DNA of 38,335 bases from Actinomycetota bacterium (GTDB lineage Bacteria > Actinomycetota > Acidimicrobiia > Spongiisociales > UBA4744), in the NCBI GenBank assembly GCA_013152275.1, contig JAADGS010000014.1:1-38335 (forward strand), given 5' to 3'. Below, piece after piece: positions 10,478-31,000 of the stretch. The notes under the pieces were generated by a model. It had not been told where the DNA came from. It saw nothing but the letters and a program-made list of their open reading frames with translations, and did no database searches. The position numbers and the translations under genes were made by a program. How positions within the stretch are numbered: the first letter of the stretch is position 1; the number at the start of each line of letters is the position of its first letter.

Positions 10478-11758
10478 TCAATCGAGTCGACGTGCCGCGC
10501 CGGCCTCCACCACAGGTTCTTCCTTCTTCCGGAATGCCAGTGTCACAAGGCCACCGAGCAGCAGCAACGCAGCGCCGATACCACCTGCGGTGGTCCCCGA
10601 CGCTCCGGTGAACGGCAAGGTCTCTGTCGTCGGCGAGGTCGTGACCGTCGTCGCCGGACGCGTGACCGTCGTCGGTGAGACCGACGCCCTCACGACGCCG
10701 GCGTCCCACGTCAAGTCGTTCTGGCCCGCTGCCAGTGTGATCACGCCCGTCCGTCCGGTCGTGCGATCTGCATCACTGCCTGTCGAAACCGTCCCCTTGC
10801 CAACGATCGTGAACCCGCCGAAGCCAGGTACGCCGCCAAGGCCGTCGGGAATGACGAACTCGACCACATAGGTACCTGCCGCGAGGTCCGTGAACAGGTA
10901 GTTGCCGCCGGCGTCGGTCACCGTGGTGTCCAACTTCGTCGTGCCGGTGCCGTCATACAGATTCACGATCACCCCGGCTATTCCCGACTCTCCCGAACCC
11001 TGAATCCCATCCTCGTCCGGTTCGACCCCGTCGTACCAGACGAAGTCACCGATAGAGCCAAGAAGCGGTGGGCACTCACCAACGGTGAACCTGCCCGACG
11101 TCCGCCCAACCAGCGAGAAACCAGGCGCAGCCGACGCCACCCACGTATACGAACCAGGATCGAGCGTGAACGCATCACCGGAACCGGTAGCCACATACGA
11201 GCCACCAGGCCCCGTAATCGTCACCATCGCACCAGACGTCGGAGCAATCACCACCTTCACAGGGGCCTCCGACGACTCACCATTCCACGAACACGACCCG
11301 GCCGAAACCGTCACCGACGCATCCGTCGGCGGCCGTTGGCATCCGGTGTCGTCGAGTTGGCTCAGGTCGATCGACAGCGATCTGGAAACATGTTGCGGGC
11401 CCCCGTCAGACCAATCTGCTTTCACGGTCAAGGTCTTGACGCCCGAATCGGAGAGCGAATACGAAACCGTGTCGGATTCGGTCGCATTCGGTCCGAGCAC
11501 GAGTCCATGTTTGATGTCTGTCAGCAGACTGTCCGAGTAGGTGACCTGGTCGACGGTCATGACGCGCCCGGACCAGTTCCCGTTCGCCACCGTCCAGGTG
11601 ATCTCCCACTCTCCCGACTCCGCGGAGCAGCCGGCATCGACAGACAGAATCGGATGGTGCGCCGATGCCGCCGGTGCGAAGTACCCGATGAGGGGCACCA
11701 CCAAGACAACAACGAGGATTGCTCGCAGTGCCTGTCCAGCCCAAGTGTGATCTCTCAT
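10478..11758 (-). CDS. Sortase-anchored (LPFTG) surface protein with SdrD B-like domain, paralog 1
   Basis: Signal peptide (..APAASA|HH), beta-rich domains, GSIGDFVWYD..DGIQ..GE.GIAGVIVNL..GNYLFTDL..GTYVVEF (SdrD B-like), Thr-rich linker, LPFTG + TM + RKK tail. ATG 11758 with GAGGAGG SD. Confidence 0.85.
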   Translation of the reverse strand: MRDHTWAGQALRAILVVVLVVPLIGYFAPAASAHHPILSVDAGCSAESGEWEITWTVANGNWSGRVMTVDQVTYSDSLLTDIKHGLVLGPNATESDTVSYSLSDSGVKTLTVKADWSDGGPQHVSRSLSIDLSQLDDTGCQRPPTDASVTVSAGSCSWNGESSEAPVKVVIAPTSGAMVTITGPGGSYVATGSGDAFTLDPGSYTWVASAAPGFSLVGRTSGRFTVGECPPLLGSIGDFVWYDGVEPDEDGIQGSGESGIAGVIVNLYDGTGTTKLDTTVTDAGGNYLFTDLAAGTYVVEFVIPDGLGGVPGFGGFTIVGKGTVSTGSDADRTTGRTGVITLAAGQNDLTWDAGVVRASVSPTTVTRPATTVTTSPTTETLPFTGASGTTAGGIGAALLLLGGLVTLAFRKKEEPVVEAGAARRLD

Positions 11759-11780
11759 TTTCCGCCTCCTCGTCAAGGGG

Positions 11781-11853
11781 GCGGGCCGGTCTCACCACTG
11801 GCTCACTTCGATCCTTGGTGACCGCGTACAGATCGAAGTTCAACGCCTCCCGT
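11781..11853 (-). ncRNA. c-di-GMP-II-type riboswitch (GAG-like variant), copy 1
   Basis: Minus strand CGGGAGGCGTTGAA-CTTCGATC..CGGTCACCAAG-GATCGAAG-TGAGCCAGTGGTGAGACCGGCCCG matches class II architecture (P1, kink-turn GA motifs, P3, pseudoknot TCACCA/TGGTGA); sits directly before the SD. Confidence 0.85.
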
Positions 11854-11889
11854 TATTGGCCCCTGACCACAATGTGTGGTTATGAAGTC

Positions 11890-11918
11890 ATGATATACCA
11901 CTGCACGCGGTCTTTCAA
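11890..11918 (-). promoter_or_regulatory. Sigma70-type promoter
   Basis: TTGAAA (11918-11913), 17 nt, TATCAT (11895-11890); same position and same -35 as the paralogous promoter at 13670-13698. Confidence 0.75.
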
Positions 11919-12037
11919 CCACTATTTGTGCTGTCTCGTCCACGCTGCGTGTTGCACACGCCTGCCTGACAAGACGGACCTCCCCAACGGTCGTCGCCGA
12001 CGTCTCCGTCTCGATACCGCCCCACCGCGCAACCAGC

Positions 12038-12065
12038 GAGGGCCTCGGCAAAAGCCGAGGCCCTC
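12038..12065 (-). terminator. Hairpin, probable terminator after surface protein gene 2
   Basis: Perfect 12-bp stem GAGGGCCTCGGC-AAAA-GCCGAGGCCCTC ~20 nt after the stop at 12088; no strong U tract. Confidence 0.6.
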
Positions 12066-12087
12066 TGATGACGATACGCCGGTACGG

Positions 12088-13536
12088 CTACTCGGCGTCG
12101 TTACGGATTACCACCAGATCGTCCTCCTTGCCACGAACCGCCAGCAGAACGAGCCCCCCGAGCAGGACCAGGCCTACCGCCGCTCCCCCAAGGCCGCTGG
12201 AGGATGCACCGGTGAATGGCAGTGTCTCGGTGGTCGGGCGCACTGCGGTCGTCGGTTCTACTTCGGTCGTGCGGTGTATGCCTGCATCGACCGTCAGATC
12301 GCTCACCCCCGCGCCAAGCGAAATGATGCCGCTGCGTCCATTCGCTCCCGCATCGCTGTCGATCGTGTCGTCCGATCCTTGATCCGCAGCCGAGAACTCC
12401 CACGTTTCTGCCGGAAGCACGAACTCGACGATGTAGTCGCCGGCCAGAAGCCCGCTAAAGCCGTAGTGCCCGTCGGAATCTGTTGTCGTCGACTCCAGCT
12501 GTGCACCACTGCCATCCAGCAGGTTCACCGTGGCTCCTGCGATTCCGATTTCACCGGCATCCTGCAGACCGTTGGTGTTCGCGTCGTTCCACACGAAGTC
12601 GCCAATGGTTCCGGCTTGAGGCGCCGTCGTCGTCGTGGTGGGCGGCGCCGTGGTCGTCGTGGTCGTCGGCGCCGTGGTCGTCGTGGTCGTCGGCGCCGTC
12701 GTCGTCGTGGTTGTCGACGCCGTGAACGTGTTCGTGAACACGCAGGTCACCGACTCCCCTTCGGCCAAGTCGATCTGTGCCGGATCAGACCCGTCCGAAC
12801 ACGCCGTGGAGGTGAGCTCCCATCCCGGGGGCAGCACGGTTTCCTTCACGTCATAGATCCCGGCAGGTAGGCCGTCGAACGTGGTCGAGGCCACCCCCGA
12901 CGCCGTGGTCATACTGAAGTCCGTGTCGTCCAGAGTCTCCGAAGAGAACGAGAACGTTCCGTTACCGTTGATCGCGTTCTTCAGGATCTTGATCGAGCCG
13001 GTCGCCGCCTCCGGCACGGGAACGAACGCTGCGCAGACCGGGTGAATCGAGTTCGCATAGGTCTGGGCATCACCGGGAGTGGGCCAGAACGCGTGACGCG
13101 CCCAAAGCTCGGTGAGGTCCGGAACGAGCGTGTCTGCGTTCACCTGCTGCGAAAGGAAGTCCACATCGTTCGGCAGGTCGGCGATGATGCCTGAAAGGAA
13201 CGAGGGGGTGGCTCCAGAGACCATCGAACGATCGGCGAGCTGCCACTGCTCATGTGCCTGCACCTGAGGCGACGTGCCATCGTGGGGATCATACGAGTAC
13301 AGGTAGATGTCGTACCGTCCCGCCGGAATCGATACGGCGACCGGCCCGGTCTCGGCATCCGCCTTGGTGAGGTCGGAACGAATCATGTGCGCGCCCAGAT
13401 CGACGATGGTTCCTTGTGTGAACGGGCACGTCAAATCCGGCTCGGCCGTCTGCCCCCATGCAGGAATTGCCAGAAGCCCGACCAAGAGCGCCATCGTGGC
13501 GACCGCGGCACCCCACCTCAATAGACCCTTTTTCAT
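12088..13536 (-). CDS. Sortase-anchored (LPFTG) surface protein with prealbumin/SpaA-like and SdrD B-like domains, paralog 2
   Basis: Signal peptide, GSIKILK..YDVKET..PGWEL..C..VTCVFTN (pilin/prealbumin-like fold), Thr-rich stalk, GTIGDFVWNDANTNGLQD (SdrD B-like), LPFTG + TM + RGK; AAGGAGG SD. Confidence 0.85.
   Translation of the reverse strand: MKKGLLRWGAAVATMALLVGLLAIPAWGQTAEPDLTCPFTQGTIVDLGAHMIRSDLTKADAETGPVAVSIPAGRYDIYLYSYDPHDGTSPQVQAHEQWQLADRSMVSGATPSFLSGIIADLPNDVDFLSQQVNADTLVPDLTELWARHAFWPTPGDAQTYANSIHPVCAAFVPVPEAATGSIKILKNAINGNGTFSFSSETLDDTDFSMTTASGVASTTFDGLPAGIYDVKETVLPPGWELTSTACSDGSDPAQIDLAEGESVTCVFTNTFTASTTTTTTAPTTTTTTAPTTTTTTAPPTTTTTAPQAGTIGDFVWNDANTNGLQDAGEIGIAGATVNLLDGSGAQLESTTTDSDGHYGFSGLLAGDYIVEFVLPAETWEFSAADQGSDDTIDSDAGANGRSGIISLGAGVSDLTVDAGIHRTTEVEPTTAVRPTTETLPFTGASSSGLGGAAVGLVLLGGLVLLAVRGKEDDLVVIRNDAE
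12620..12715. repeat. Intragenic 24-bp tandem repeat (x4) encoding a Thr-rich (TTTTTTAP-like) stalk
   Basis: GGCGCC recurs at 12620, 12644, 12668 and 12692. Confidence 0.85.
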
Positions 13537-17513: not shown

Positions 17514-17566
17514 CCGTTCTCGTGACGGCTCGACGGGATTATTCCCGTGAACCGTCACGAAAACAG
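17514..17566. repeat. REP-like palindromic element, copy 2 (inverted relative to copy 1)
   Basis: CCGTTCTCGTGAC-27 nt-GTCACGAAAACAG; the reverse complement of its spacer shares TTCACGGGAATA with copy 1. Confidence 0.8.
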
Positions 17567-17567
17567 G

Positions 17568-18158
17568 ATGGAGGTCCCGAAGGGGGCGCTGGCCGGATGG
17601 TGCACAGACTTTCGACCGAGTGAAACAGCCATCGAGGCCATCCGAGAAAGGACAGGATCCTGGAAAGGCGCGCCTCGGGACACACGGCGCAAGCGACGGG
17701 CCGAAGTCGAGCGACCGAAAGTCGAATCCCGGGCCGACGTCCTCGAGCGATTGCCGGATCCGAGATGGCCGGCGGGCACCGTCATGTATCGGACCGAGGG
17801 CGCAAAGACGCAACGTAGGCTTCAAATGACGAACTCGGATCCGCGAGTGTTGCGGCTCTTCATGGCCCGGGCCGCAACATACCTGACTCCGAACCCGGAG
17901 TTCGCCCTGCAACTACAGCACCACGAGGGCAACGACGACCCACCGGCTCGCACCTACCGGACCAACGAACTCGGGCTCGCACACCCTGACTTCTACAAGA
18001 CCTTCGTCAAGCCGCGAGGAACTGGCCACCGCAAGAACCACCTCGAGCAAGGCGTGTGCGGCGTTCGACTACGAAGGAGCGCAAACACGTGGATCGTGGC
18101 CATGGCATGGATCGACGGCCTTTTGGCAGTATTCGGGGAACCTCGACAGCTCGGTTAG
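17568..18158 (+). pseudogene. Degenerate, 5'-truncated LAGLIDADG-like (HTH + homing-endonuclease-like) protein
   Basis: AGTVMYRTEGAK..LQMTNSDPRVLRLF..GVC resembles the LYWAEGxK..F.NSDP family often found next to tRNA genes. It starts mid-HTH (VPKGALAGW) and expected Trp residues appear as Arg. Confidence 0.55.
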
Positions 18159-18172
18159 ACTGCCGCTCCGCC

Positions 18173-18246
18173 GGGTCGCTAGCTCAATCTGGCAGAGCAG
18201 GGGCCTCTTAAGCCCAAGGTTGTGGGTTCAAGTCCCACGCGACCCA
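18173..18246 (+). tRNA. tRNA-Lys (CTT)
   Basis: GGGTCGCTAGCTCAATCTGGCAGAGC..CT-CTT-AA..GGTTCAAGTCC..GCGACCCA; a TAGACT -10-like box lies at 18156-18161. Confidence 0.95.
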
Positions 18247-18247
18247 C

Positions 18248-19459
18248 TCAGATCAAACTGGCCAGTCTCCCGATCTTCTCGAATGCCTCCAACGCTCTGT
18301 CGATCTGATCGTTCGTGTGCGTCGCCATGCAGCTCGTACGCAGCAACTGTCGCCCGTTCGGTGTCGCAGGAGAAACAACGGGATTCGTGTAGACACCCTC
18401 GTCGAGCAGCATGCGCCACATGCCGAAGGTGACCATGTCGTCACCGACGATGACCGGAACGATCGGAGAAACGGAGTTGCCGGTGTCGAAGCCCAGACGC
18501 TGAAGCCCGGTCCGCCACCGCTCGCCATTGAGCTGCAGCCGCTCGACCCGCTCCGGCTCGGACCGCATGATCTCCAACGCTGCCAGCGCGGCGGCGGCGT
18601 TGGGCGGAGGGATCGATGCCGAGAAGATCAGCGCACGGGCATGATGCTGGATGAAGTCCACCACTTGGGTGTCACCGGCGATGAACCCCCCGAGCGACGC
18701 GAACGACTTGGAGAACGTGGACATGATCAGATCGGTCTCGTCCACGACGCCGAAGTGTGCTGCAGTACCTCGCCCCGCCCCCATCACTCCCATGCCGTGG
18801 GCATCGTCCACCATCACTCGTGCCCCATATCGGTGGCTCAGATCGAGCATCTCGGGAAGTGGGGCCAAGTCCCCTTCCATACTGTAGAGGCCGTCGACAA
18901 CGACGAGGCGGCCCTGGTCGTCGGCAGTGGACAGCAATTGGCGTTCGAGGTCCCCGAGATCGTTGTGGCGGAAACGCTTGATTCTCCCCCAGCCGAGCCG
19001 AGCCGCATCGATGATGCTGGCGTGGTCGTCCTTGTCGAGGAACACGGTATCGCTCCGGCCGACCAGCGCGGAGATCGTGCCCAGGTTGGTCTGCATGCCC
19101 GTGGAGAACACGAGGGCAGCATCCTTGCCGACGAACTCGGCGAGCTGCCGTTCGAGTTCCAGGTGCATCTCCAGCGTCCCGTTGAGGAATCGCGACCCCG
19201 TACAACTGGTACCCATTTCCGCGATGGCCTTCATGGCCGCCTCGCGCACCTTCGGATGGGTCGTCAGGCCGAGGTAGTTGTTCGAACCGAACATCAGGAT
19301 ACGCCGGCCCTGGTAGATCGCCTCGGATCCCTCGTTGCTCTCGAGCGGGAGGAAGTACGGGTAGAACCCCGCCTCCCGAGCCTGTCGGGCACGGTCGAAC
19401 GCGAGTGCCTTCTCGAACACGTCGGCGCGTGAGGTCGCCGCATCGGGACGGTCGGTCAT
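18248..19459 (-). CDS. spt: PLP-dependent alpha-oxoamine synthase, probable serine palmitoyltransferase
   Basis: YPYF, MFGSNNYLGLT, GSRFLNGT, DHASI, DDAH, TFSKS (PLP lysine) and IFSAS match bacterial SPT better than BioF/Kbl; translationally coupled to a KDSR-like reductase. Confidence 0.75.
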   Translation of the reverse strand: MTDRPDAATSRADVFEKALAFDRARQAREAGFYPYFLPLESNEGSEAIYQGRRILMFGSNNYLGLTTHPKVREAAMKAIAEMGTSCTGSRFLNGTLEMHLELERQLAEFVGKDAALVFSTGMQTNLGTISALVGRSDTVFLDKDDHASIIDAARLGWGRIKRFRHNDLGDLERQLLSTADDQGRLVVVDGLYSMEGDLAPLPEMLDLSHRYGARVMVDDAHGMGVMGAGRGTAAHFGVVDETDLIMSTFSKSFASLGGFIAGDTQVVDFIQHHARALIFSASIPPPNAAAALAALEIMRSEPERVERLQLNGERWRTGLQRLGFDTGNSVSPIVPVIVGDDMVTFGMWRMLLDEGVYTNPVVSPATPNGRQLLRTSCMATHTNDQIDRALEAFEKIGRLASLI

Positions 19460-20292
19460 CGTTGCTCGGCCTTTCTCGTTGCCTTCTTCAGGTCACGATC
19501 CATGATGATGCGAACCAGACCCGGAGCGTACCGGTTCACTCGCCAGATCCAGCCGGATCCCTTGGGATGGATGCTGAACCGTCCAGCGAGGATCCCGTCG
19601 ACGAACGTGCGGGCGACCTCGTCGGGAGACAGGAGCCCGGCGCTCTCCGACATGATGGCCGTCTCCGCAGGTTTCGTCTTGTTCTCGTTCGCCAGACCGG
19701 GGGTTTCCGTGTCGGGTGGGAACAGGACGGAGAACCCGATCCCGCGCGGCTTGAGTTCGTGCCGCAGCGACTCGGCGAGACCGACGACGGCGAACTTCGA
19801 AGGTGCATAGGCGCTGTAGCCGATCATGCCGAAGTACCCCATCATCGACGAGATGAACGACACGTGACCTTTGTGAGCCTCGACGAAGTGGGGAAGAAGC
19901 GCCAGTGTCGGAATGAGCTGCCCCAGGTAGTTCAGCTGCATCTGGCGCCGGAAATCATCGAGCGTGAGTTCGTGCACGTACCCCGGGCGGGCTCCGCCGA
20001 CGCAGTTGATGAGATGATCGGGGACTCCCCTGCGTTCGATGAGGTCTGCCAGAGCGGGGGTCACCTGATCGTTGTCGGTGGTATCGAGGGCGGTCGTCTC
20101 CACGAACTGGTCGCTGCTCGTTGCGAGTTGGGAGAGTTCTGCCGCCGTATCCGCAAGCGCCTGACGGCCGCGGGCGATGAGGACGACGCTACCGCCCCGA
20201 GACACCACCTGTCGCGCCGTGGCCCGCCCGATCCCCATCGACGCACCAGTGATGATGGAGACCGTACCGGCGAACCCTTTGCCCTTCACCAT
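19456..20292 (-). CDS. SDR oxidoreductase, 3-ketodihydrosphingosine reductase (KDSR/Tsc10)-like
   Basis: TGASMGIG, NYLG, SS..G..GYSAYAPSKFA, and FPPDTETPGLANENKTKPAET, the segment characteristic of eukaryotic KDSR; ATGA overlap with spt. Confidence 0.8.
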   Translation of the reverse strand: MVKGKGFAGTVSIITGASMGIGRATARQVVSRGGSVVLIARGRQALADTAAELSQLATSSDQFVETTALDTTDNDQVTPALADLIERRGVPDHLINCVGGARPGYVHELTLDDFRRQMQLNYLGQLIPTLALLPHFVEAHKGHVSFISSMMGYFGMIGYSAYAPSKFAVVGLAESLRHELKPRGIGFSVLFPPDTETPGLANENKTKPAETAIMSESAGLLSPDEVARTFVDGILAGRFSIHPKGSGWIWRVNRYAPGLVRIIMDRDLKKATRKAEQR

Positions 20293-20402: not shown

Positions 20403-20487
20403 GCGGGCGTAGCCGAATTGGCATAGGCGCCAGACTTAGGATCTGGTGGGCGTAGGCCCGATGTGGGTTCGAGTCCCACCGCCCGCA
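20403..20487 (+). tRNA. tRNA-Leu (TAG)
   Basis: GCGGGCGTAGCCGAATTGGCATAGGC..CT-TAG-GA, long variable arm, GGTTCGAGTCC..CGCCCGCA. Confidence 0.96.
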
Positions 20488-20494
20488 CATTCCC

Positions 20495-20813: not shown

Positions 20814-21647
20814 ATGGTTGATCAAGCTCGAAAGCAGATTGTCGCCGATCGTCGCGGCTACTCCGTCCATCTTCAAACCGAGGAACGCTCGGCCGTCGAA
20901 ACGGCACACGGGTCTTCCGATGGTGTGGTGATCGACCTCAGGGACAGGAGCGTCGTCGATCTCAGGGGCGAAGACGTCGTCGTTGAGATCACGAGGGCCA
21001 ACCGTGTGTTTCTCAGAGGCGACGAGGGCATCCTCGCCGCACCTGTCTGGCAACTCGGGATGAAGCGTGTCGTGGACATCGTCCTGTCGATCTTCTTCCT
21101 CGTCATCCTTTCTCCGGTCCTGATCGCCGCAGCCATCGCGGTGAAGTTGACCTCGCCGGGGCCGCTGCTCTACGTGCAGGACCGCGTCGGGAAGAACGGG
21201 AAGACCTTTCGATTCGCCAAGTTCCGCTCCATGCGAGACGGAGCCCACACCGAACTCGACGATCTCAGACACCTCAACGAAGTGGACGGACCTGTGTTCA
21301 AGATCCGGGACGATCCCCGCATCACACCGGTCGGTCGATTCATGCGCAAGTACAGCATCGACGAGCTACCTCAACTCTTCCACGTCCTCACCGGCGGGAT
21401 GAGCCTTGTCGGGCCGCGTCCGCCGATCCCGGCCGAAGTGGCCACATACGACGAGTGGCATCGTCAGCGTCTGCTGACGAAGCCGGGCATCACGTGCATA
21501 TGGCAGGTGAGCGGCCGTTCCGACCTCGACTTCGAGACCTGGGTCGAATTGGATGTGGAGTACATTCGGACATGGAAACCGAGCCTCGACTTCTTGATCC
21601 TGCTGAAGACCTTGCCTGCAGTCATCTCCGCGAGAGGTGCCTACTAG
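20814..21647 (+). CDS. Priming (initiating) phosphoglycosyl transferase, bacterial sugar transferase family
   Basis: KRVVDIV, KFRSM, DDPRIT, SIDELPQL, MSLVGPRP and KPGITCIWQVSGR motifs; start uncertain. Confidence 0.93.
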   Translation: MVDQARKQIVADRRGYSVHLQTEERSAVETAHGSSDGVVIDLRDRSVVDLRGEDVVVEITRANRVFLRGDEGILAAPVWQLGMKRVVDIVLSIFFLVILSPVLIAAAIAVKLTSPGPLLYVQDRVGKNGKTFRFAKFRSMRDGAHTELDDLRHLNEVDGPVFKIRDDPRITPVGRFMRKYSIDELPQLFHVLTGGMSLVGPRPPIPAEVATYDEWHRQRLLTKPGITCIWQVSGRSDLDFETWVELDVEYIRTWKPSLDFLILLKTLPAVISARGAY

Positions 21648-21833
21648 GAGGGCCACCCGGAACGCTTCTCAAGACTCGCGTACGCGTTGCCGATTGACGA
21701 GTGAGAGCGGGACGGCGATGTCGTCCATCGTCTAGTGTGAAACACCACTCCGGGTGGCCGTCCGTCAGCCGGGCGGAGGAGGCCTGATGAACCAGGGAAT
21801 CGTAGGAAACCGGTCGGCGGGTCGGGGATGTCC

Positions 21834-22895
21834 ATGAAGATCCTCGTCACCGGACACAACGGCTACATCGGTGCAGTGCTCGTGCAGCTTCTCCAGGGTG
21901 CCGGCCATGAAGTGGTCGGGCTGGACACCTACTGGTTCTCGGACTGCCATCACGGCCCGGCACCGGCAGACCCGCCGGCGTTGCGCATGGACCTGCGAGA
22001 TGTGACCGCGCAGGACCTCGAAGGTTTCGACGCCGTGATGCATCTGGCGGCCCTCTCGAACGACCCGTTGGGCGATCTCAGCCCGGAGTACACGTTCGAC
22101 ATCAACCTGCACGCCTCCGTGCAGCTCGCCGAGGCGGCAAAGGCCGCCGGAGTCCCCCGATTCATCTTCTCCTCCTCCTGTTCCCTCTATGGGGCTCCCG
22201 GCACCGACGAACTGGTGGACGAGACCGCGGCGTTCGGGCCGATCACGCCCTACGGCGTCTCCAAGATCAAGGTCGAGCAGCAAGTCGCAGCTCTGGCCGA
22301 CGACGACTTCAGCCCCACCTACCTTCGCAACACGACCGCCTACGGCTGGTCACCACAGTTGCGGGGCGACATCGTGGTCAACAACCTCGTTGCCTATGCC
22401 TTCACGACAGGCGAGGTGCTCATCAAGAGCGACGGGTCTCCCTGGAGGCCACTCGTTCATGTCGAGGACATCGCCAGGGCGTTCCTCGCCGTCGCCGAAG
22501 CTCCGAGAGCAGTGATCCACAACCAGGCTTTCAATGTCGGAAGGACCGACGAGAACTACCAGATCTCCGCGGTGGCCGACCTCGTGGCGCAGGTCGTTCC
22601 GAACAGCCGCGTCGTGTACGCACCCGGCGGTGAACCCGACACCCGCAGCTACCGGGTCGATTTCTCCAAGATCGCCGACGCTCTACCCGACGCACGACCA
22701 CGATGGACGGTCCTTCAAGGCATCGAGGAGCTCTACGAGGCGTACCAGAAGTATGGGCTCACCCTGGACGAGTTCGAGAACAGATACCTGCGGATCCGTC
22801 ACCTCCGCCGCCTCCTCGCCGACGGACGCCTCACCCCCTCCCTACGATGGCGGTCCGCCGAACACACCGCACAGGTGGGAAGCCAAGATGCGTGA
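21834..22895 (+). CDS. NAD-dependent nucleotide-sugar epimerase/dehydratase
   Basis: VTGHNGYIG, SSCSLYG and YGVSK extended-SDR motifs. Confidence 0.9.
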   Translation: MKILVTGHNGYIGAVLVQLLQGAGHEVVGLDTYWFSDCHHGPAPADPPALRMDLRDVTAQDLEGFDAVMHLAALSNDPLGDLSPEYTFDINLHASVQLAEAAKAAGVPRFIFSSSCSLYGAPGTDELVDETAAFGPITPYGVSKIKVEQQVAALADDDFSPTYLRNTTAYGWSPQLRGDIVVNNLVAYAFTTGEVLIKSDGSPWRPLVHVEDIARAFLAVAEAPRAVIHNQAFNVGRTDENYQISAVADLVAQVVPNSRVVYAPGGEPDTRSYRVDFSKIADALPDARPRWTVLQGIEELYEAYQKYGLTLDEFENRYLRIRHLRRLLADGRLTPSLRWRSAEHTAQVGSQDA

Positions 22896-24135
22896 GCACA
22901 CCGCGTCCACACCCCTCTGCCGCTTCTGCAACGCGCCGCTCGGTTTCACGTTCGTCGATCTGGGCATGTCGCCTTTCTGCGAGAGCTTCCTCGGCGAGGA
23001 CCAGCTCAACCAGATGGAGCCGTTCTACCCGCTCCACGTCTACGTCTGCGATCGGTGCTTCCTGGTGCAGCTCGAGGAGTACGTCGCCCCCGAGGACATC
23101 TTCACCGAGTACGCCTACTTCTCTGCCTACTCGGACAGCTGGCTCGCCCACGCGAAGGCATACGTCGACATGATCACCGAACGACTCGCCTTGGATCACA
23201 CATCGAGCGTCGTCGAGTTGGCGAGCAACGACGGGTACCTGCTTCAGTATTTCGTCCAAAAGGGTATCCCCGCCCTCGGGATCGAACCTGCCGCCAACGT
23301 TGTGAAGGCGGCGGAGGAGCGAGGAGTCGATACGCTGGTCGAGTTCTTTGGCGCGGCGTTGGCCCGGCGTCTGGTGACGGAGGGCAGAATGGCCGACCTG
23401 ATCATCGGCAACAATGTGCTCGCCCAGGTCCCGGACCTCAATTCGTTCGTGGAGGGCATCAAGACGCTCCTGGCCCCCGGCGGAGTCGTCACCATCGAGT
23501 TCCCCCACCTGCTCCGTCTCATGGACGAGAATCAGTTCGACACGATCTATCACGAGCACTTCTCCTACTTCTCGCTCTCGACCGCCGAACGGATCTTCGC
23601 AGCGCACCGGCTGACACTCTTCGATGTCGAGGAGTTGCCCACGCACGGCGGATCCCTGCGGATCTACGCCAGGCACGTCGAGGACCTCTCCAAACCGGTC
23701 ACTCCCGGTGTCGTCGCACTTCGTCAACGTGAAGCCGCCGCGGGACTCAACGGCCTGGATGCATACCGCCTCTTCCGTGAACGGGTGGAGGCAACCAAGC
23801 GAGACCTCCTCGAATTCCTCATCGAGCGACGAAGAGCAGGCGAGTCGGTGGTCGGATACGGTGCGCCCGGCAAGGGCAATACGCTGTTGAACTACTGCGG
23901 CATACGAACGGATTTCCTCGACTACACGGTCGACCGGAACCCCTACAAGCACGGGATGTACCTTCCGGGAACCCACATCCCGATCTACCCTCCCGACAGG
24001 ATCGAGGAGACAAGACCGGACTACATCCTCATCCTGCCATGGAATCTGAAGAACGAGATCGCCAAACAACTCGCCTACACGGCGGATTGGGGTGCGAAAC
24101 TGGTCGTGCCCATCCCCCGGGTGCAGACGCTATGA
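22888..24135 (+). CDS. NDP-hexose C-methyltransferase (Zn-binding, NovU/TcaB9-like)
   Basis: CRFC..CDRC Zn site, ELASNDG, IYHEHFSYFS, HGGSLR, YGAPGKG, ILPWN. Start moved to ATG 22888, overlapping the upstream stop. Confidence 0.9.
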   Translation: MREHTASTPLCRFCNAPLGFTFVDLGMSPFCESFLGEDQLNQMEPFYPLHVYVCDRCFLVQLEEYVAPEDIFTEYAYFSAYSDSWLAHAKAYVDMITERLALDHTSSVVELASNDGYLLQYFVQKGIPALGIEPAANVVKAAEERGVDTLVEFFGAALARRLVTEGRMADLIIGNNVLAQVPDLNSFVEGIKTLLAPGGVVTIEFPHLLRLMDENQFDTIYHEHFSYFSLSTAERIFAAHRLTLFDVEELPTHGGSLRIYARHVEDLSKPVTPGVVALRQREAAAGLNGLDAYRLFRERVEATKRDLLEFLIERRRAGESVVGYGAPGKGNTLLNYCGIRTDFLDYTVDRNPYKHGMYLPGTHIPIYPPDRIEETRPDYILILPWNLKNEIAKQLAYTADWGAKLVVPIPRVQTL

Positions 24136-24172
24136 GGACGCAACGTGTGACGGCAGGACACGGAGGAACCCC

Positions 24173-24961
24173 ATGAAAGTCGTACTGTTCTGCGGCGGAC
24201 AAGGAACCCGCCTTCGCGACTACTCGGAGACGATCCCAAAGCCGATGGTCCCCGTCGGCTACCGACCGATTCTGTGGCACGTCATGAAGTACTACGCCCA
24301 CTTCGGGCACCGGGACTTCATCCTGGCGTTGGGCTATCGGGCCGACGCCATCAAGGACTTCTTCCTGCACTACGAAGAAGCGGTCTCGAACGACTTCGTC
24401 CTTTCCGACGGGGGCAAGCGAATCGAGCTGGCGAACAGCGACATCGCCGACTGGACGATCACCTTCGTCGATACCGGCGCTGCCTCGAGCATCGGAGAAC
24501 GGCTGCGCAGGGTCCGCCGGCACCTCGAAGGTGAGGAGGTGTTCATGGCCAACTACGCCGACGGGGTCACGGACCTGCACCTTCCCAGCTACATCGACGA
24601 ATTCATGCGTCGCGATGTCGTCGCGAGCGTTGTCGCCATCCGCCCACCCGGCAGCTACCACGCGATGCAGATCGACGAGGATGGGTGGGTACGTGGGAGC
24701 ATGCCCATCGCCGCTACCGACACCTGGATCAACGGCGGGTATTTCATCTTCAAGAAGGCGATCTTCGACTACATGCAGAAAGGTGAAGAACTGGCCGTTG
24801 AACCGTTCGCACGCCTCATCAAGGATCACCAACTCGTAGCTCATCGACACACCGGCTTCTGGGCACCGATGGACACGTTCAAGGACAAGCAGCTGCTCGA
24901 CGATCTCTACCGTAGCGGCAACGCCCCCTGGCAAGTGTGGAACGGCGCCAACGGGGCCTGA
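24173..24961 (+). CDS. rfbF: Glucose-1-phosphate cytidylyltransferase
   Basis: LFCGGQGTRL..PKPMV, FVDTG, INGGYF and GFWAPMDTFKDK; ATG 24173 with GGAGG SD. Confidence 0.88.
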   Translation: MKVVLFCGGQGTRLRDYSETIPKPMVPVGYRPILWHVMKYYAHFGHRDFILALGYRADAIKDFFLHYEEAVSNDFVLSDGGKRIELANSDIADWTITFVDTGAASSIGERLRRVRRHLEGEEVFMANYADGVTDLHLPSYIDEFMRRDVVASVVAIRPPGSYHAMQIDEDGWVRGSMPIAATDTWINGGYFIFKKAIFDYMQKGEELAVEPFARLIKDHQLVAHRHTGFWAPMDTFKDKQLLDDLYRSGNAPWQVWNGANGA

Positions 24962-24980
24962 CGAAGGAAACGGACCGCCG

Positions 24981-25640
24981 ATGCAGACACTCTCGCTCGA
25001 CACGGAAACTCCGACCATTCTGTGTCTGGGGGCACACAGCGACGACATCGAGATCGGATGTGGAGCCACCGTTCTCCGCCTGCTCGACGCGCTGCCCGGA
25101 GCCTCGGTGCAGTGGGTCGTGTTCAGCGCGCATGGCGAGCGGGCGGCAGAGGCCCGACGCGGCGCCGACCTGTTCGCCGGAGATCGCCTCGCCGAATTCG
25201 GTGCACACGACTTCCGTGACGGTTTCTTTCCCGGGGCCTTCGGCGAGCTCAAGGAGCGCTTCCGGGAACTGGCCCGGACCGTCGAGCCGGATCTCGTCCT
25301 CACCCACTGGCGCAGGGATGCTCACCAGGATCATCGGCTGGTGGCGGAGCTGACCTGGCAGACGTTTCGCGACCATTTCGTTCTCGAATACGAGATCCCC
25401 AAGTACGACGGCGATCTCGGATCACCGAACGTGTACCTGCCGGTCGCCCGGGAGCAGGCCGACCGCAAGATCGCGTATCTGATGGAGGCGTTTCGCTCCC
25501 AGCACGGCAAGTACTGGTTCAACGACGAGGCGCTCCGCTCCCTGATGACGATCCGAGGTGTCGAGTGCAAGTCCTCCAGCGGCTTCGCGGAGGCCTTCTA
25601 TGGCTACAAGGTCGTGCTGAACGCAGGCGAGCGTGACTGA
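24981..25640 (+). CDS. PIG-L family deacetylase-like protein
   Basis: GAHSDDIEIGCG and DAHQDH metal-binding motifs. Confidence 0.88.
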   Translation: MQTLSLDTETPTILCLGAHSDDIEIGCGATVLRLLDALPGASVQWVVFSAHGERAAEARRGADLFAGDRLAEFGAHDFRDGFFPGAFGELKERFRELARTVEPDLVLTHWRRDAHQDHRLVAELTWQTFRDHFVLEYEIPKYDGDLGSPNVYLPVAREQADRKIAYLMEAFRSQHGKYWFNDEALRSLMTIRGVECKSSSGFAEAFYGYKVVLNAGERD

Positions 25641-26814
25641 ACCTCGCGCCTCGACATGCTGGAGCTGTGGAGCTGCGGACCTCGTTCCCTTCTTCGAATC
25701 CCGATCGGTTCCGACGAGTTCCTGCGTGCTGCTGCCGAGCAGACAGGAAGCCGAGGCATGGCCCGTCGGGAACCTTCGACTCGCCTTCTGCCCGGCCTGC
25801 GGTTTCATCCAGAACGAGCTGTTCGATCCGGATTTGATCGACTACACCCAGCCCTACGAGGAGAGCCAGGCATTCTCGGCGACGTTCGCCCGATTTGCGA
25901 CGGCGTTGGCGAACCGGCTGATCGACTCCTACGACATACGTCACAAGGACGTCTTCGAAATCGGATGCGGCAAGGGCGACTTCCTGAAGCTGGTCTGCGA
26001 ACTCGGCGCCAACCGCGGCCTGGGCATCGATCCCGCGTTCACCGAGGGGCGGCTGGAGACCACCGCGGACGTGAGGGTGTTGAATGAGTTCTTCTCTGAG
26101 CGCACCACCCACCTCACGGGCGATCTCATCACTTGTGTCCACACCCTCGAGCACATCCAGGCGGTGGGCGACTTCATGAAGCTGATCAGGCAATCGGCCG
26201 ATCACCGCGCCGGATCGGTCGTGTTCGTCGAGGTGCCCGACACCATGCGTATCCTGTCGGAAGGCGCGTTTTGGGACATCTACTACGAGCACTGCTCCTA
26301 TTTCACGCTCGGTTCGCTCGGCCGCCTGCTGCGTGCGTCCGGTTTCCATCTCCTCTCCCTGGAGACCGCATACGACGACCAGTACCTGCTCGTCGAGGCA
26401 ACGGCTTCGAGCAACGGACCGGATGCCCACTTCCCGGGGGAAGACGATCTCGATCAGGTCGCGAAGCGAGTTGGCACCTTTTCCGACGCCGCCTATGCGG
26501 CGATTCGAAGTTGGGAACGCCGTCTGGAGGATGCAGAGGCGGCAGGGAAACGTGTGGTGGTATGGGCTGCCAGCTCGAAGGGCGTCAGTTTCCTCACCAC
26601 GTTGGAGGGCGGACGAACGGTGAGCCACGTCGTGGACATCAACCCCTACAAGCAGGGCAAATTCATGCCGGGCACGGGGCAGGAGATCGTTGCGCCCGAG
26701 TTCCTCAGGACCTCTCCGCCGGATCTGGTGATCGTGATGAACCCCATCTATCTCGAGGAGATCCGCGCAGACCTCACCCGGCTCGGGCTGGCTCCGGAGG
26801 TCGTGGCGGTCTGA
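25633..26814 (+). CDS. SAM-dependent sugar methyltransferase (C-methyltransferase-like)
   Basis: CWSC..CPAC, EIGCGKG, HTLEH, YYEHCSYF, VDINPYKQG. Confidence 0.85.
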   Translation: MTEPRASTCWSCGAADLVPFFESRSVPTSSCVLLPSRQEAEAWPVGNLRLAFCPACGFIQNELFDPDLIDYTQPYEESQAFSATFARFATALANRLIDSYDIRHKDVFEIGCGKGDFLKLVCELGANRGLGIDPAFTEGRLETTADVRVLNEFFSERTTHLTGDLITCVHTLEHIQAVGDFMKLIRQSADHRAGSVVFVEVPDTMRILSEGAFWDIYYEHCSYFTLGSLGRLLRASGFHLLSLETAYDDQYLLVEATASSNGPDAHFPGEDDLDQVAKRVGTFSDAAYAAIRSWERRLEDAEAAGKRVVVWAASSKGVSFLTTLEGGRTVSHVVDINPYKQGKFMPGTGQEIVAPEFLRTSPPDLVIVMNPIYLEEIRADLTRLGLAPEVVAV

Positions 26815-26818
26815 GGAG

Positions 26819-28003
26819 TCAGGCGATGAGGATCTCGGCGTCGATGCCCATCTTCTCCAGACTGCCGGCGATCTCGCCCTTGTAGATCTCATTGGCGATC
26901 ACGACCACGTCGGGAGGCTGTGCGACCAGAACATCGGGAGAGTGGATCGGCTGGCCCGTTCCCGCCATGTGCCTGCCCCATTTACGCGGGTTGATGTCGA
27001 CGACAAGGGGGATCTCTTCCCCGATCTGCAACACGTTCAAGAATGTGTCCCCTCGTGCACCCGCCCCCCACAACACGGCCCGACGACGCTTCGCCGTGAT
27101 ATCGAGAAGCATCGTGCGCCAGCGATCGATCCTTTCCTCGTAGGCCGTTGCGAACCGGCGAACGTCGGACTCGAGCAGATGGCCGACAGGAGGCCGCTCA
27201 CCCGTGTCTCCGACGGATGGAGAAGCCTCGATGACCAGATACAGGTCCTCGTAGACCGGACGGATGTCGCGCACGGTGAAGCCGGCCGTCCCGAGGAGTC
27301 GCTCCAGGGCCTGGGGCGTGTAGTAGACGGGATGTTCGTAGATGACGTCCCACACGTCGGCGCGCTGCAGCATGTCGAGCGCGTTGGGTACCTCGAACAC
27401 AACGACGGAATCGCTCCGGTCACCGAGAATGTCTCGAATATGAGCCAGAAACGACCGGGGATCGTCCACGTGCTCGAGGAGCTGACGTGCGATCACCAGA
27501 TCGGGACTCACCTGCAGGTCGGCCTCGAGGTAGTAGCCCTTGACGAACGTGAGCCGATCATCGATCGGTCTCGCGGGATCTTCCTCATAGCTCGGATCCA
27601 CACCGATGCCCCGGTTGTTCCCGAGTTCCACCATCATCCGGAGGAAGTCGCCCTTTCCGCAACCGATCTCGAGTATGACCTTGTTGTGAAGGTCGTAACG
27701 CTCGATCAGCTCCGTTCCCAGCTCCCTGGCATAGCTTTGGAACAGGGACGAGAAGTGGAGCGAATTCTCGTAGTTCTCGTCGTAGTCGAGGAGCGACGGA
27801 TCGAACGCAACGTTTACGAGCAGACCGCACGTGCCACACAATGCCAGCGACATCGTCCCCCGTGGGCAGTCGAGCGCCGCGTCGCGCTCTGGCCACAACG
27901 TGCAACTCTGCGTCGGCAGTCTCGTCGGCTCGGTGAACACGTCGAGATCGGGCGAGCCACACGCGGGACACGCCCGGATAACGACCTCTCGGGTCTCACC
28001 CAC
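26819..28003 (-). CDS. SAM-dependent sugar methyltransferase (C-methyltransferase-like), paralog of the convergent gene
   Basis: CPAC..CGTC, EIGCGKGDFL, IYEHPVYY, VDINPRKWG. Confidence 0.85.
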   Translation of the reverse strand: MGETREVVIRACPACGSPDLDVFTEPTRLPTQSCTLWPERDAALDCPRGTMSLALCGTCGLLVNVAFDPSLLDYDENYENSLHFSSLFQSYARELGTELIERYDLHNKVILEIGCGKGDFLRMMVELGNNRGIGVDPSYEEDPARPIDDRLTFVKGYYLEADLQVSPDLVIARQLLEHVDDPRSFLAHIRDILGDRSDSVVVFEVPNALDMLQRADVWDVIYEHPVYYTPQALERLLGTAGFTVRDIRPVYEDLYLVIEASPSVGDTGERPPVGHLLESDVRRFATAYEERIDRWRTMLLDITAKRRRAVLWGAGARGDTFLNVLQIGEEIPLVVDINPRKWGRHMAGTGQPIHSPDVLVAQPPDVVVIANEIYKGEIAGSLEKMGIDAEILIA

Positions 28004-28078: not shown

Positions 28079-31000
28079 TCATGGCAACGGAGTCACAGTG
28101 ACGTTTCCGATCGCAACGTCGACATGGTGCACGAGCAGAAGGAATGAACCGGAGACCGGATCACCCGCCTCTCCCTGCTGGTCGGTGAGTTGCCAACTGG
28201 TCGGCTCTGTGGTCCCGTCTTCCCAGATCTTCAGACTGTACAGGGGGCCGTCCACGGTCGTCTCGACACGCATCTTGAACCAGTAGGTCGAGCCGATGTT
28301 GATCGACTGGGCCAGCTCGGAGCGGACGTCCGGATTGAAGCCGACGAGCCGGAGCCCCTCGAACGTGTCCGTCCACCGCAGCTCACCGAGTGATCCGGAA
28401 GGCCACCAGCCCCAGACAGGTTGCGCAGAGGGGTCACAGGCCGGCTCGGTGAACGCCGAACAGTCCTCGTGCCCGTCCCAACCCATCAGGATGCCGAGCG
28501 CCGGGCCGTAGCTGGGAGCGTCGTACCCGTTCACCGTATCGAGGCCCCGAATCTTCATGGGTACCAACACTTCATACTGATCCCATGTGACATCGCCGAT
28601 GTCGATGAGACGGTCGTACCCGACATCCACGGTCAGCAGATTATTGGAGTCGACCTCCCACTGTCCGTCGACCACCTGGGCGACGTCCTGAATGTCGGTG
28701 ACGGTGCTCCAGTCGATCGAGTAGGGCGACGGCCAGACGTTGCCGGTACTCCAGTTGACCGTCACCGTCTTGGTGGTCGGGTTGCCCAGACCGTCGACCG
28801 CGACGATGACGACGGTGTTGGCACCGCTGACGAGATCCGGATCCGCGGTCGATATCTGCACGTCGAAGTCGCCGGGCATGAGCAGACGGCGACTGTCCGG
28901 GCCCATCGAGAGGCTGTGACTCGCTCCACCGTTCAGCGAATAGCTCAGCGATGCGATTCCGTCCGGGTCGTCGACGTTGCCGAGAACATCGATCCATTTC
29001 TGTGCGTTGCCGATGTTTCCGAATTTCTGGACATCGCCGTACCAGATATCGAAGATCGTCCCACCGCCGTCCTCGGGCGTGATCGGCGATGCGCCGTTGA
29101 AGAAGTAGTCCACGATCACCCGAGTGGCAGGCGCGGGACGATCGGTCGGGCTCGGGTTCGCGGCGTACACGCCCACTTGGGTCACCGTCATCAACTGATC
29201 GAAGGTCAACTGCTCCGTCCATGTGGAGCCGTCGCTCGATGTCGAGTACGTCCACGTGTTGCCCGACCGCGTGACTTTCAACCAGATCGGCTGGTGTCCG
29301 AGCGGGGCCACACTGCTGTACGGGAAGTTGTCGGGTCCACCGTCGATGAAGGCCGCGAAGGCGGTCGCATCTCTGCCGTAGGCGAAAACGTCGAACCGCA
29401 GGAACGTGTCCGCATCCTGCTGGACGATGATCCCTTGATCTTGCTCGGGTTCGGTCATCTGCGACTGGAATTTCGCGATGATCTCGAAATTCGTGTCGGC
29501 GGCAGGTTGCATGAGTCTCGGTGCGTTGAACGTGATGGGCGGCACGGCGGTCGAATCGATCCATGCGTCGTGCGCAGCGGCCGCGGGAACCTCGATCACG
29601 AGCTGGTTCCCCGATCGGGAGATACCGAACGTCGAGTCTGCATCCGGGTCGACCTGCGTCCACACCGTGCCGTTGATCGACGCCCCGAAGAAGTCGTCCG
29701 ACACGAACGCGGAGGGTGACAGCATCCCGATCGTCACGGTCGCCGTGTCACACGCCGCCTCGGTGTCACACACCTGATAGGTGAACGAGTCCTCACCGAC
29801 GTATCCGGCGTCGGGCGTGTAATCGAAGGTCCCGTCAACGTTGTTCACCAACGCTCCGTACACCGGTGCCGTCTGCGCGGTCGTCGATGTCGGATCCAGA
29901 TTCCCATCGATGTCGTTGGCAACCACGTCGATCGTGACCAACGTCCCCTCGGGCGTCGTCACCGAATCATCCACCGCCACCGGCGCCACGTTCGTGACCG
30001 TCACGGTCACCGTCGCCGTATCGCACATGGCGGTGGCGTCACACACCTGATAGGTAAAGGAGTCCCCACCTACGTACCCTGCATCGGGCGTGTAATCGAA
30101 GGTCCCATCAACGTTGTTCACCAACACACCGTGCAGCGGTGCCGTCTGCACGGTCGTCGATGTCGGATCCAGATTCCCATCGATGTCGTTGGCAACCAAA
30201 CGTCCCCTCGGACGTCGTCGCCGCATCATCCACCGCCACCGGCGCCAGATACGTTGCGAGTTCGATCCGGACGGCGTCGGAGACCGCACCGGTGCCGCCG
30301 AGGACAACGATTCTGCTGGTCGCGAGTCGGAGAAGTTCTTGGCCGGTCGCGTACGGGACAGCGTCTTGTTCGACCAGGAGCACAGGTCCGCCTTGCCGGG
30401 CGGCCGCAGGCCCTCCTGCGATGGCATCCGGGTAGTTCAGCCCGGTGGCGACATAGACCACGGGGACTCCCGGCGCGAAATAGTCCGAGGAGATCGCTGC
30501 GGCGGTCGCATACCGATTCGAGCCGGAAAGTCGTCTGACCGACCCGCTGGTATATGCGTTGAGGGCCGTTTCGATGTCTTGGGAGACCGCGAGGGTCCCA
30601 CCGAGCACCACGATCTCACCGGGTGCGAGCCGTACGAGCTCGTTGGCCGTGGCGGCAGGGATCGAGCTGCCCACCAGAAGAATCGGCCCACCTCTGAGTG
30701 CTCCCACGGGACCACCGGCGAGCGCATCGGGAAAGTTCACACCGGTGGCGATGTAGGCCACGGGGACTCCGGGAGCGAACGTCGCCGCAGACACGGCTGC
30801 AGCGGATGCGTACCGGTCCGCGCCCGACAGGCGTGTCACCGTGCCGGTGGTGTACGCGGCAAGGGCCGCTTCGACAGATGGCGAGATCACCGCCGTCCCA
30901 CCGAGTACGACGATCCGACCGGGCTGCAATCGCACGAGCTCATCCGCGGTCGATTGTGGAATGGTGTCGGTGCTCACAAGCAGGATCGGACTCTGGCCGC

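Follow-up and report, generated by a model that had tools for sequence, protein, structure and literature searches.

A gene pair predicted to combine a bacterial-type serine palmitoyltransferase with a KDSR/Tsc10-family reductase in one family of Acidimicrobiia

Genomic organization of the gene pair

The window analyzed here is a stretch of 38,335 nucleotides (contig JAADGS010000014.1 of assembly GCA_013152275.1; GTDB lineage Actinomycetota; Acidimicrobiia; Spongiisociales; UBA4744) and corresponds to contig C16 in a genome of 3.07 Mb with a completeness rating of 100%. Two open reading frames (ORFs) on its minus strand lie alone between genes for tRNA-Lys and tRNA-Leu (Table 1). The upstream ORF codes for an SDR (short-chain dehydrogenase/reductase) that resembles the eukaryotic 3-ketosphinganine reductases KDSR and Tsc10, and the downstream ORF encodes a pyridoxal 5'-phosphate (PLP)-dependent alpha-oxoamine synthase that resembles bacterial serine palmitoyltransferase (SPT). 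Stop and start codons overlap in an ATGA, through which the two genes are presumably translationally coupled. This layout was noted in a preliminary description of the DNA, with which both the ORFs and the tRNA calls agree, and the motifs quoted there for the two enzymes are all present in the translations. Together with a putative bacterial ceramide synthase (bCerS) encoded elsewhere in the genome, the pair points to a hybrid sphingolipid route in one family of Acidimicrobiia, made up of a bacterial SPT, a eukaryote-type reductase, and a bacterial ceramide synthase. We estimate the probability of this reading, which is based on comparative sequence analysis, at about two in three.

Table 1. 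Features of the locus and of the operon containing the putative ceramide synthase (positions refer to the window unless a contig is named).
Feature	Position	Strand	Basis
Predicted KDSR/Tsc10-family short-chain reductase, 278 aa	19456..20292	-	ORF, Pfam adh_short, Tsc10 8jat profile match, identities, trees, hydropathy, model
SPT-like PLP-dependent alpha-oxoamine synthase, 403 aa, Bacteroidota (CFB) type	18248..19459	-	NCBIfam, PDB, tree, residues
ATGA stop/start overlap of SDR and synthase	19456..19459	-	DNA sequence
SDR catalytic YxxxK, Tyr162 and Lys166	19795..19809	-	Translation, family alignment
KDSR-family signature loop, SDR residues 192-211	19660..19719	-	Alignment
Synthase PLP-binding Lys251 (Lys244 of Sphingobacterium multivorum SPT) in TFSKS motif	18707..18709	-	Residue comparison
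tRNA-Lys(CTT), convergent with synthase; conserved flank outside the pathway	18173..18247	+	tRNA call
tRNA-Leu(TAG), divergent from SDR start; conserved flank outside the pathway	20403..20488	+	tRNA call
Three-gene operon: lipid-A/phosphatidylinositol mannoside-type acyltransferase, CDP-alcohol phosphotransferase, bCerS-like GNAT	G000:C71:60178-62895 (L184:3179-5896)	-	

The tRNA-Lys gene ends on the base directly preceding the stop codon of the synthase, so that the two abut. The pair is native to the genome in composition (GC 0.634; GC at third codon positions, GC3, 0.79-0.81, compared to 0.73-0.81 in seven housekeeping genes), and the tRNA flanks are kept in five other loci (L004, L005, L006, L032, and L104). 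No second copy of the tRNA-Lys 3' end was found in the genome and none of the tRNA-Leu 3' end in the window. Thus, a recent insertion of an island or mobile element at the tRNAs can be ruled out. A search of viral contigs gave only two matches of 24% identity, and a promoter and terminator scan gave no signal exceeding that of shuffled sequence.

The reductase

The SDR matches Pfam adh_short and shares 38, 41, and 35% identity with the KDSRs of Orbicella, Acanthamoeba, and Trichechus, respectively, in alignments of approximately 240 residues that contain no more than a single gap. The signature loop is identical at 17 of 20 positions to that of the mammalian KDSR-like protein P0367 of Trichechus and is absent from the alignment rows of five outgroup SDRs of the same genome. 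Near-identity to human KDSR in this segment, as claimed in the preliminary description, is thereby borne out for a mammalian protein, the comparison having been made with Trichechus and not with human. A profile built from 34 homologues of the SDR had its best PDB match in fungal Tsc10 (8jat; 147.7 bits in one domain), and the next single-domain match reached 117 bits. The GxxxGxG motif (G16-G22) and the residues N121, S149, Y162, and K166 are invariant across the 34 alignment rows. In phylogenetic trees of a 67-row subset of 401 domains, rooted with five SDRs from one genome, the KDSR-like set including the eukaryotes was split from the outgroup with support of 100/96 (LG+G4) and 100/95 (C20 mixture). 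Collectively, these comparisons support the earlier proposal that the SDR would be a true, eukaryote-type member of the KDSR/Tsc10 family. Many of its homologues are named "3-dehydrosphinganine reductase" by automatic annotation, so that the family label already exists in databases. The top 50 matches in a fold search with the SDR model were all generic SDRs (Z 29.5-31.4), with Tsc10 not among them.

The bacterial enzyme type described from Bacteroides is a different one. The SDR scored 81.6 bits against the Bacteroides KdsR model NF049977 (cut-off 400 bits), which the B. thetaiotaomicron control passed, and with the same control no Bacteroides-type KdsR was found in the genome, where the best score was 108 bits. 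The second strand of the SDR ends with an arginine, and an arginine in this position points to NADP(H). The protein appears to be soluble, as neither terminus contains a transmembrane segment. Its maximum 19-residue hydropathy is 0.96 at the N-terminus and 0.72 at the C-terminus, compared to 2.1-3.2 at the N-termini of four eukaryotic KDSRs. According to the structure model and the hydrophobic moment, the C-terminal helices are basic and amphipathic. The anchor of yeast Tsc10 is said to be removable (PMC6148460).

The synthase

Among the NCBIfam models, the synthase was best matched by NF047600 for Bacteroidota SPT (524.8 bits). It stayed below the cut-offs of the Kbl-like models TIGR01825 (381 of 535 bits) and NF005394 (361 of 460 bits), of TIGR01822 (295 of 493 bits), and of the BioF model TIGR00858 (374 of 426 bits). 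The best PDB match was the S. multivorum SPT with 429 bits, followed by an enzyme with 296 bits; the cysteate enzyme 28eh reached 259 bits. Of the 34 positions named in the structure paper on the S. multivorum SPT (PMC10196870), 27 are identical. They include Asn52, Gly80, Ser81, His138, Asp210, His213, Thr241, Ser243, and Lys244 (S. multivorum numbering). Thus, all PLP ligands except Phe114 are kept, as are the serine-contacting residues Asn52, Gly80, Ser81, His138, and Ser243, and the motif STFSKS agrees with (G)TFSKS in five of six positions.

In a quick tree built from 62 of the 95 collected synthases, with proteobacterial and eukaryotic SPT not included, the synthase grouped with three CFB (Bacteroidales) SPTs that score above the NF047600 cut-off (Shimodaira-Hasegawa-like approximate likelihood ratio test, SH-aLRT, 92). 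The SDR-coupled synthases formed one clade (SH-aLRT 100) inside the SPT group, and the Kbl clade and a clade with cysteate-pocket residues were separate from them. The pocket of cysteate fatty acyltransferase (CFAT/SulA) is described as containing Ala82 and Lys280 (PMC13692747), which are replaced by Ser89 and Ala281 in the synthase; rows with the CFAT pattern make up a distinct clade. Two other synthases are encoded in the genome, a PRK07505-like protein and a Kbl (L002) with scores above the cut-offs for that enzyme. These data support a placement of the synthase in the bacterial SPT clade as well as its initial designation as SPT.

Conservation and distribution of the pair

Strong matches to the DNA of the pair were obtained in 17 of the family's 18 other genomes. 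Outside the family, 12 genomes gave none, save for a partial synthase match in one of them (G355). All 14 same-family loci examined, one of which is truncated at a contig end, show an SPT gene following the SDR gene on the same strand with a gap of at most 200 nt. The closest titled relatives, both Acidimicrobiia (L004 and L032), share the gene order, and their synthases are 86-88% identical to that of the window, which supports a host of Acidimicrobiia type. The pair is inherited across one family of Acidimicrobiia. Conservation of the pair, which the preliminary description proposed to survey across Acidimicrobiia, applies at family level, whereas a class-wide trait can be ruled out because SPT was detected at E<=1e-100 in only two of 151 genomes of the class.

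We also surveyed the best 80 of at least 488 loci from species-representative genomes (51 bacterial and 29 archaeal). The same adjacency occurs in 22 of the bacterial and in none of the archaeal loci, with 9/10 in Actinomycetota, 8/17 in Chloroflexota, 2/2 in Bacteroidota, 1/1 in Bacillota, and 2/2 among loci without a phylum name. Recurrence in these 22 loci and in all 14 family loci indicates that the arrangement in the window is more than chance. In nine of 17 spirochaete loci, a synthase gene lies farther away on the opposite strand, and a bCerS-like gene is present as well in three of the nine. Other KDSR-like clades are paired with synthases too (L224, L228, and L245-247), and a 5.3 kb metagenome contig encodes a fusion of synthase and KDSR-family SDR with 744 aa (P0128), whose synthase half falls outside the SPT clade. 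Such pairings and the fusion support a functional link between synthase and SDR. In one Anaerolineales locus (L028:8917-11588), the SDR gene is followed by two tandem SPT-like genes.

A putative ceramide synthase on another contig

The statement in the preliminary description that the window lacks genes for a ceramide synthase or an acyl carrier protein (ACP) fits a Pfam scan that covered 38 selected long ORFs and no short ones. As bCerS query we used a GNAT-like gene that adjoins a curated SPT gene in L175. Its single match in the genome, C71:60178-61305 (28% identity, E 4e-50), has a GNAT fold and is the last gene of a three-gene operon (Table 1) conserved in two further genomes (G122 and G159). 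Of the 18 family genomes, 16 carry the bCerS-like gene; of the 12 outside, one does, and this sole outside copy adjoins an SPT-like gene of its own. Homologues beside synthases were also seen in L234, L029, L030, and L035. The C71 protein is thus a probable bacterial ceramide synthase.

In the last three of these loci, which belong to Spirochaetota, a KDSR-family SDR gene is divergent from a run of genes for an acyl-CoA ligase, a synthase, and the bCerS-like protein, and each of them possibly holds a complete pathway in one locus. An Anaerolineales genome other than that of L028 (G157, contigs C39 and C81) encodes four bCerS-like paralogues.

The only ACP of the genome is encoded on C71, at neither the pair nor the GNAT locus; Bacteroidetes SPTs are reported to use acyl-CoA (PMC11324152). 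A search of the genome for CerR-like proteins gave no convincing match (best E 3e-20, 28% identity), a weak negative because the queries were unvalidated epimerase-fold neighbours of SPT-like genes. A TLC-domain ceramide synthase was not found in the genome in a search to which no positive control responded.

Proposed pathway and alternative readings

In the proposed route, the SPT-like enzyme would form 3-ketosphinganine by condensation of L-serine and a long-chain acyl thioester, as its close homology suggests; like Bacteroidota SPTs, it would probably use acyl-CoA. The soluble KDSR-family SDR would then reduce the free base to sphinganine in the manner of eukaryotes, a step that is suggested by family membership and by the coupling of the genes. 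The SDR is probably NADPH-dependent and might be peripherally bound to the membrane via its basic, amphipathic C-terminal helices. More tentatively, the co-distribution of the genes suggests that the bCerS-like GNAT enzyme on C71 N-acylates sphinganine to dihydroceramide, and the CDP-alcohol phosphotransferase encoded in the same operon possibly attaches a polar head group. The preliminary description had proposed that the first two steps follow the eukaryotic order. Both enzyme families are indeed present, but the probable bCerS elsewhere in the genome makes the pathway probably a hybrid, and the operon does not settle the order of steps. We infer that reduction comes first.

Several observations weigh against this reconstruction. 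The synthase scores below the curated cut-off of NF047600 (524.8 vs. 640 bits), and compared to SPTs above the cut-off its pocket carries the changes Ser53Asn, Ala79Thr, and Phe114Met, so that substrate preference is not fixed by the sequence. Ala79 of the S. multivorum SPT touches the amino-acid side chain via water (PMC10196870). KDSR-like genes often occur without a synthase. None was present in the available flanking DNA at 20 of 51 bacterial and 28 of 29 archaeal loci of the survey, although five of these loci end less than 400 nt downstream, and the same applies to all four loci nearest to a Nostoc protein, two of which comprise less than 4 kb. Nineteen genomes of the class have a KDSR-like gene, belonging to another clade, but no SPT at E<=1e-100. 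Family membership alone therefore does not fix the substrate. Four class genomes contain a distant bCerS-like copy and likewise no SPT at this threshold. The bCerS label itself is an inference from the GNAT fold and the 28% identity to an SPT-adjacent gene that is not a validated bCerS. Moreover, the genomes of the family are kin and not independent evidence. Finally, with a bCerS present, acylation could precede reduction.

This last point leads to the bacterial order, in which the bCerS-like enzyme would acylate 3-ketosphinganine and the KDSR-family SDR would reduce the resulting oxo-ceramide as a non-homologous stand-in for CerR. The co-distribution of the bCerS-like gene with the pair is compatible with such a scheme, as is the failure to find a clear CerR in the genome with the unvalidated queries, and the oxidised ceramide that accumulates in Caulobacter cerR mutants (bioRxiv 10.1101/2023.11.08.566215) indicates that bCerS can take the keto base. 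However, eukaryotic KDSR/Tsc10 works on the free base (PMC6148460), the SDR is coupled to SPT rather than to the acyltransferase, and two Asgard archaea, MK-D1 and L. ossiferum, carry both genes without a bCerS-like match. We thus regard acylation before reduction as quite unlikely. It is unlikely as well that the product is a non-canonical long-chain amino alcohol, such as a 1-deoxy base derived from alanine or glycine, a base of other chain length, or a secondary-metabolite core. The low model score and the three pocket changes would permit this, S. multivorum SPT also accepts alanine and glycine, and KDSR homologues act in fumonisin and sphingofungin clusters (PMC12134224). Nevertheless, the five serine contacts are retained, neither a polyketide synthase (PKS) nor a dedicated ACP lies beside the pair according to the Pfam scan, and a core membrane function agrees with the native codon bias and with the retention of the pair throughout the family.

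Alpha-oxoamine synthases all score high on one another's models, and the synthesis of capnine likewise pairs such a synthase with an SDR (PMC13692747 and PMC11211663). The synthase of the window could accordingly be taken for BioF, Kbl, or a cysteate acyltransferase of sulfonolipid synthesis and the SDR for its ketoreductase. This is very improbable given the position of the synthase in the tree apart from Kbl and the cysteate-type clade, the Ser89/Ala281 pair in place of the CFAT residues, the difference between 259 and 429 bits in the PDB comparison, and the separate Kbl of the genome. Hardly probable at all is a catabolic SDR that oxidises scavenged long-chain amino alcohols. This idea may suit Asgard members of the family better, in which the SDR genes neighbour those for an FGGY kinase, a class III aminotransferase, an acyl-CoA ligase, an NAD kinase, and a 3-hydroxyacyl-CoA dehydrogenase and co-occur with SPT-like genes no more often than by chance. 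In the window, the arginine of the second strand speaks for NADP(H) and against such a role. Furthermore, the synthase coupled to the SDR in the window's family is a decarboxylating one, and enzymes of this class are called irreversible (PMC11906848).

Comparison with known systems

The hybrid route would share its first two reactions with the eukaryotic pathway, in which SPT is followed by KDSR/Tsc10/FVT-1 (PMC6148460; 8jat), and the SDRs are homologous. In contrast to the eukaryotic system, the SDR of the window is soluble and lacks an endoplasmic reticulum anchor, the SPT is a single bacterial-type subunit, and the genes form an operon. The acylating enzyme is probably a GNAT-type bCerS, whereas no TLC-domain protein was found with a silent control. 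Bacteroidota, represented by the S. multivorum SPT (3A2B, 8GUH; NF047600), provide the best PDB and NCBIfam match to the synthase, 27 of 34 identical positions, and the neighbouring clade, but the synthase differs by its sub-cut-off score, its own SDR-coupled clade, and the three pocket changes. With Caulobacter, where Spt, bCerS, and CerR are known (bioRxiv 10.1101/2023.11.08.566215; PMC11324152), the genome has a bacterial SPT and, probably, bCerS in common. However, the locus has no periplasmic CerR, AcpR, or AasR, its reductase belongs to the classical SDRs of the KDSR family, and the host is a probable monoderm.

Reduction of free 3-ketosphinganine by a bacterial SDR was shown for KdsR of Bacteroides thetaiotaomicron (BT_0972; PMC9278070). 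Reduce-first chemistry thus already exists in bacteria, although in an SDR lineage different from that of the window. The cited part of that study reports no full Tsc10/FVT-1 homologues, its candidates being 16-30% identical, and according to Uchendu and Klein homologues of the eukaryotic enzymes, SPT apart, are lacking in bacteria (bioRxiv 10.1101/2023.11.08.566215). Ketocapnine reductases are 21-27% similar to Tsc10 (PMC11211663). To qualify the preliminary description, a homologue of KDSR from bacteria has already been proposed as part of a sphingolipid cluster. In SgaABC of Pseudomonas fluorescens MYb115, the SDR SgaC is homologous to eukaryotic KDSRs and accompanies a synthase with proven SPT activity; a eukaryote-like step was proposed, with an activity that is "presumed," and producers were predicted among Actinobacteria (PMC12134224). 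SgaABC is a PKS-dependent secondary-metabolite cluster of a diderm, whereas the pair described here is PKS-free; SgaC is not among the sequences of our tree. What is probably new is thus a PKS-free operon of SPT and eukaryote-type KDSR that probably feeds bCerS in a probable monoderm family. The literature searched contained nothing that describes the pair of the window, although Stankeviciute 2022 and Biran 2024 may discuss prokaryotic KDSR homologues.

In the Black Sea survey by Ding et al., SPT-like genes were found in 38 phyla including 218 metagenome-assembled genomes of Chloroflexota, but none in archaea, and Anaerolineae were linked to ceramides (PMC11334938). CerR and bCerS were searched for, and KDSR is not mentioned in the portion of the survey used here, so that many SPT-like genes are left lacking a known reductase. 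A widespread KDSR-family gene coupled to SPT would fill a part of this missing-reductase gap, Anaerolineae included. The pair would also offer a minimal, soluble two-gene system for testing the disputed order of steps, and it predicts that sphingolipids are a family-wide trait in probable monoderms.

Relationship to eukaryotic KDSR and Asgard archaea

Eukaryotic KDSRs were nested within a broad prokaryotic family. The clade of the window SDR (100/100) contains sequences from Chloroflexota, spirochaetes, Bacteroidales, and Asgard archaea. Eukaryotic KDSRs fell together with two other clades, one rich in cyanobacteria and one a further clade of the window's class (88/91 with LG+G4 and 98/98 with C20), and FastTree placed the cyanobacteria-rich clade as sister to eukaryotic KDSR in an analysis of 401 rows (support 1.0). 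Mean identity to eukaryotic KDSR is 41% in the cyanobacteria-rich group and 34% in the window clade. In approximately unbiased (AU) tests, neither of them under the mixture model, Asgards as direct sister of eukaryotic KDSR were rejected (p=0.001, LG+G4), and a group of eukaryotes and the whole window clade including Asgards was not (p=0.141). The KDSR tree contained 14 rows labelled as eukaryotic, three of which were assigned by length and tree position, left out fungal Tsc10, and had a small outgroup. The suggestion that the pair bears on the origin of eukaryotic KDSR would therefore hold for the family as a whole; the window gene appears not to be the nearest relative in these trees and, unlike the cyanobacteria-rich clade, is not part of a sister lineage. 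The literature searched on KDSR origin and cyanobacteria contained nothing relevant.

Members of the KDSR family occur in MK-D1, L. ossiferum, Harpocratesius, Hodarchaeota, and Thorarchaeota. The first three, all Lokiarchaeia, encode both SPT-like and KDSR-family genes, which are unlinked. Their SPT-like enzymes are 46-49% identical to the window synthase, have NF047600 as best model (461-498 bits), and carry SPT-type active-site residues; that of MK-D1 has the S. multivorum SPT as best PDB match. No bCerS-like match was found in MK-D1 and L. ossiferum. In a sample of 151 genomes of the Asgard phylum, the two genes were present in 14 (E<=1e-118) and 18 genomes, respectively, at least two of the 14 holding only a different synthase clade. 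Both were present in three genomes, one being the centre genome, where approximately 1.7 are expected by chance, so that co-occurrence lends no support to a linked function there. The neighbours of the Asgard SDR genes suggest catabolism.

A bolder scenario would regard SPT and the KDSR-family SDR as an old prokaryotic module that works with bCerS in Acidimicrobiia, Chloroflexota, and others, that makes sphinganine-type bases in Lokiarchaeia, and from which eukaryotic KDSR was inherited. We consider this scenario doubtful. If true, eukaryotic KDSR would be inherited rather than convergent, and sphinganine-type bases would be made by Promethearchaeum syntrophicum MK-D1 and Ca. Lokiarchaeum ossiferum and thus be testable in existing cultures. 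Tobiasson et al. reported a pathway-level Asgard signal for the sphingolipid map, with KDSR unnamed in the part cited (PMC12872458), against which the unlinked genes of cultured Asgards (QEE17285 and QEE17871) could be tested. No paper joining Asgard, sphingolipid, and serine palmitoyltransferase was found in the literature searched.

Asgard SPT-like synthases with SPT-type residues, those of MK-D1 and L. ossiferum included, are mostly stand-alone (L105, L106, L107, L109, and L126-L139). In L131:2829-3668 and likewise in the fragment L128:2-259, such a gene is preceded by an SDR gene that resembles the Bacteroides KdsR type (245 of 400 bits for NF049977; 39% identity to the SDR beside the curated SPT in L174) and might represent an additional type of pairing between SPT and reductase in archaea. 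In L065, L077, and L078, archaeal KDSR-family genes come after genes for another, unrelated SDR and for a conserved protein of 526 aa that matches no Pfam family, and L065 has a synthase outside the SPT clade 0.9 kb downstream.

Neighbouring genes in the window

Pfam analysis revealed LPXTG-type and cell-wall-binding proteins in the window. Such surface proteins fit a monoderm envelope, and the host is probably a monoderm. They are encoded at 10478-13536 and 28079-31316 and comprise two proteins with an SdrD-B/prealbumin fold, of which one carries a weak LPXTG anchor, together with a Big_9/cadherin-like and a CWB2 cell-wall-binding protein. Past tRNA-Leu, a sugar-modification cluster (20814-28003) codes for a sugar transferase, an epimerase, C-methyltransferases, a nucleotidyltransferase, and a PIG-L deacetylase. 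The cluster is adjacent to the pair in L004 too, displaced by about 7 kb in L006, and unseen in six other loci; the locus comparison showed no functional tie to the SDR-SPT pair. Between the tRNA cluster and tRNA-Lys lies an ORF of 203 aa on the plus strand (17547-18158), which has no Pfam or NCBIfam match and is 52% conserved in L032.

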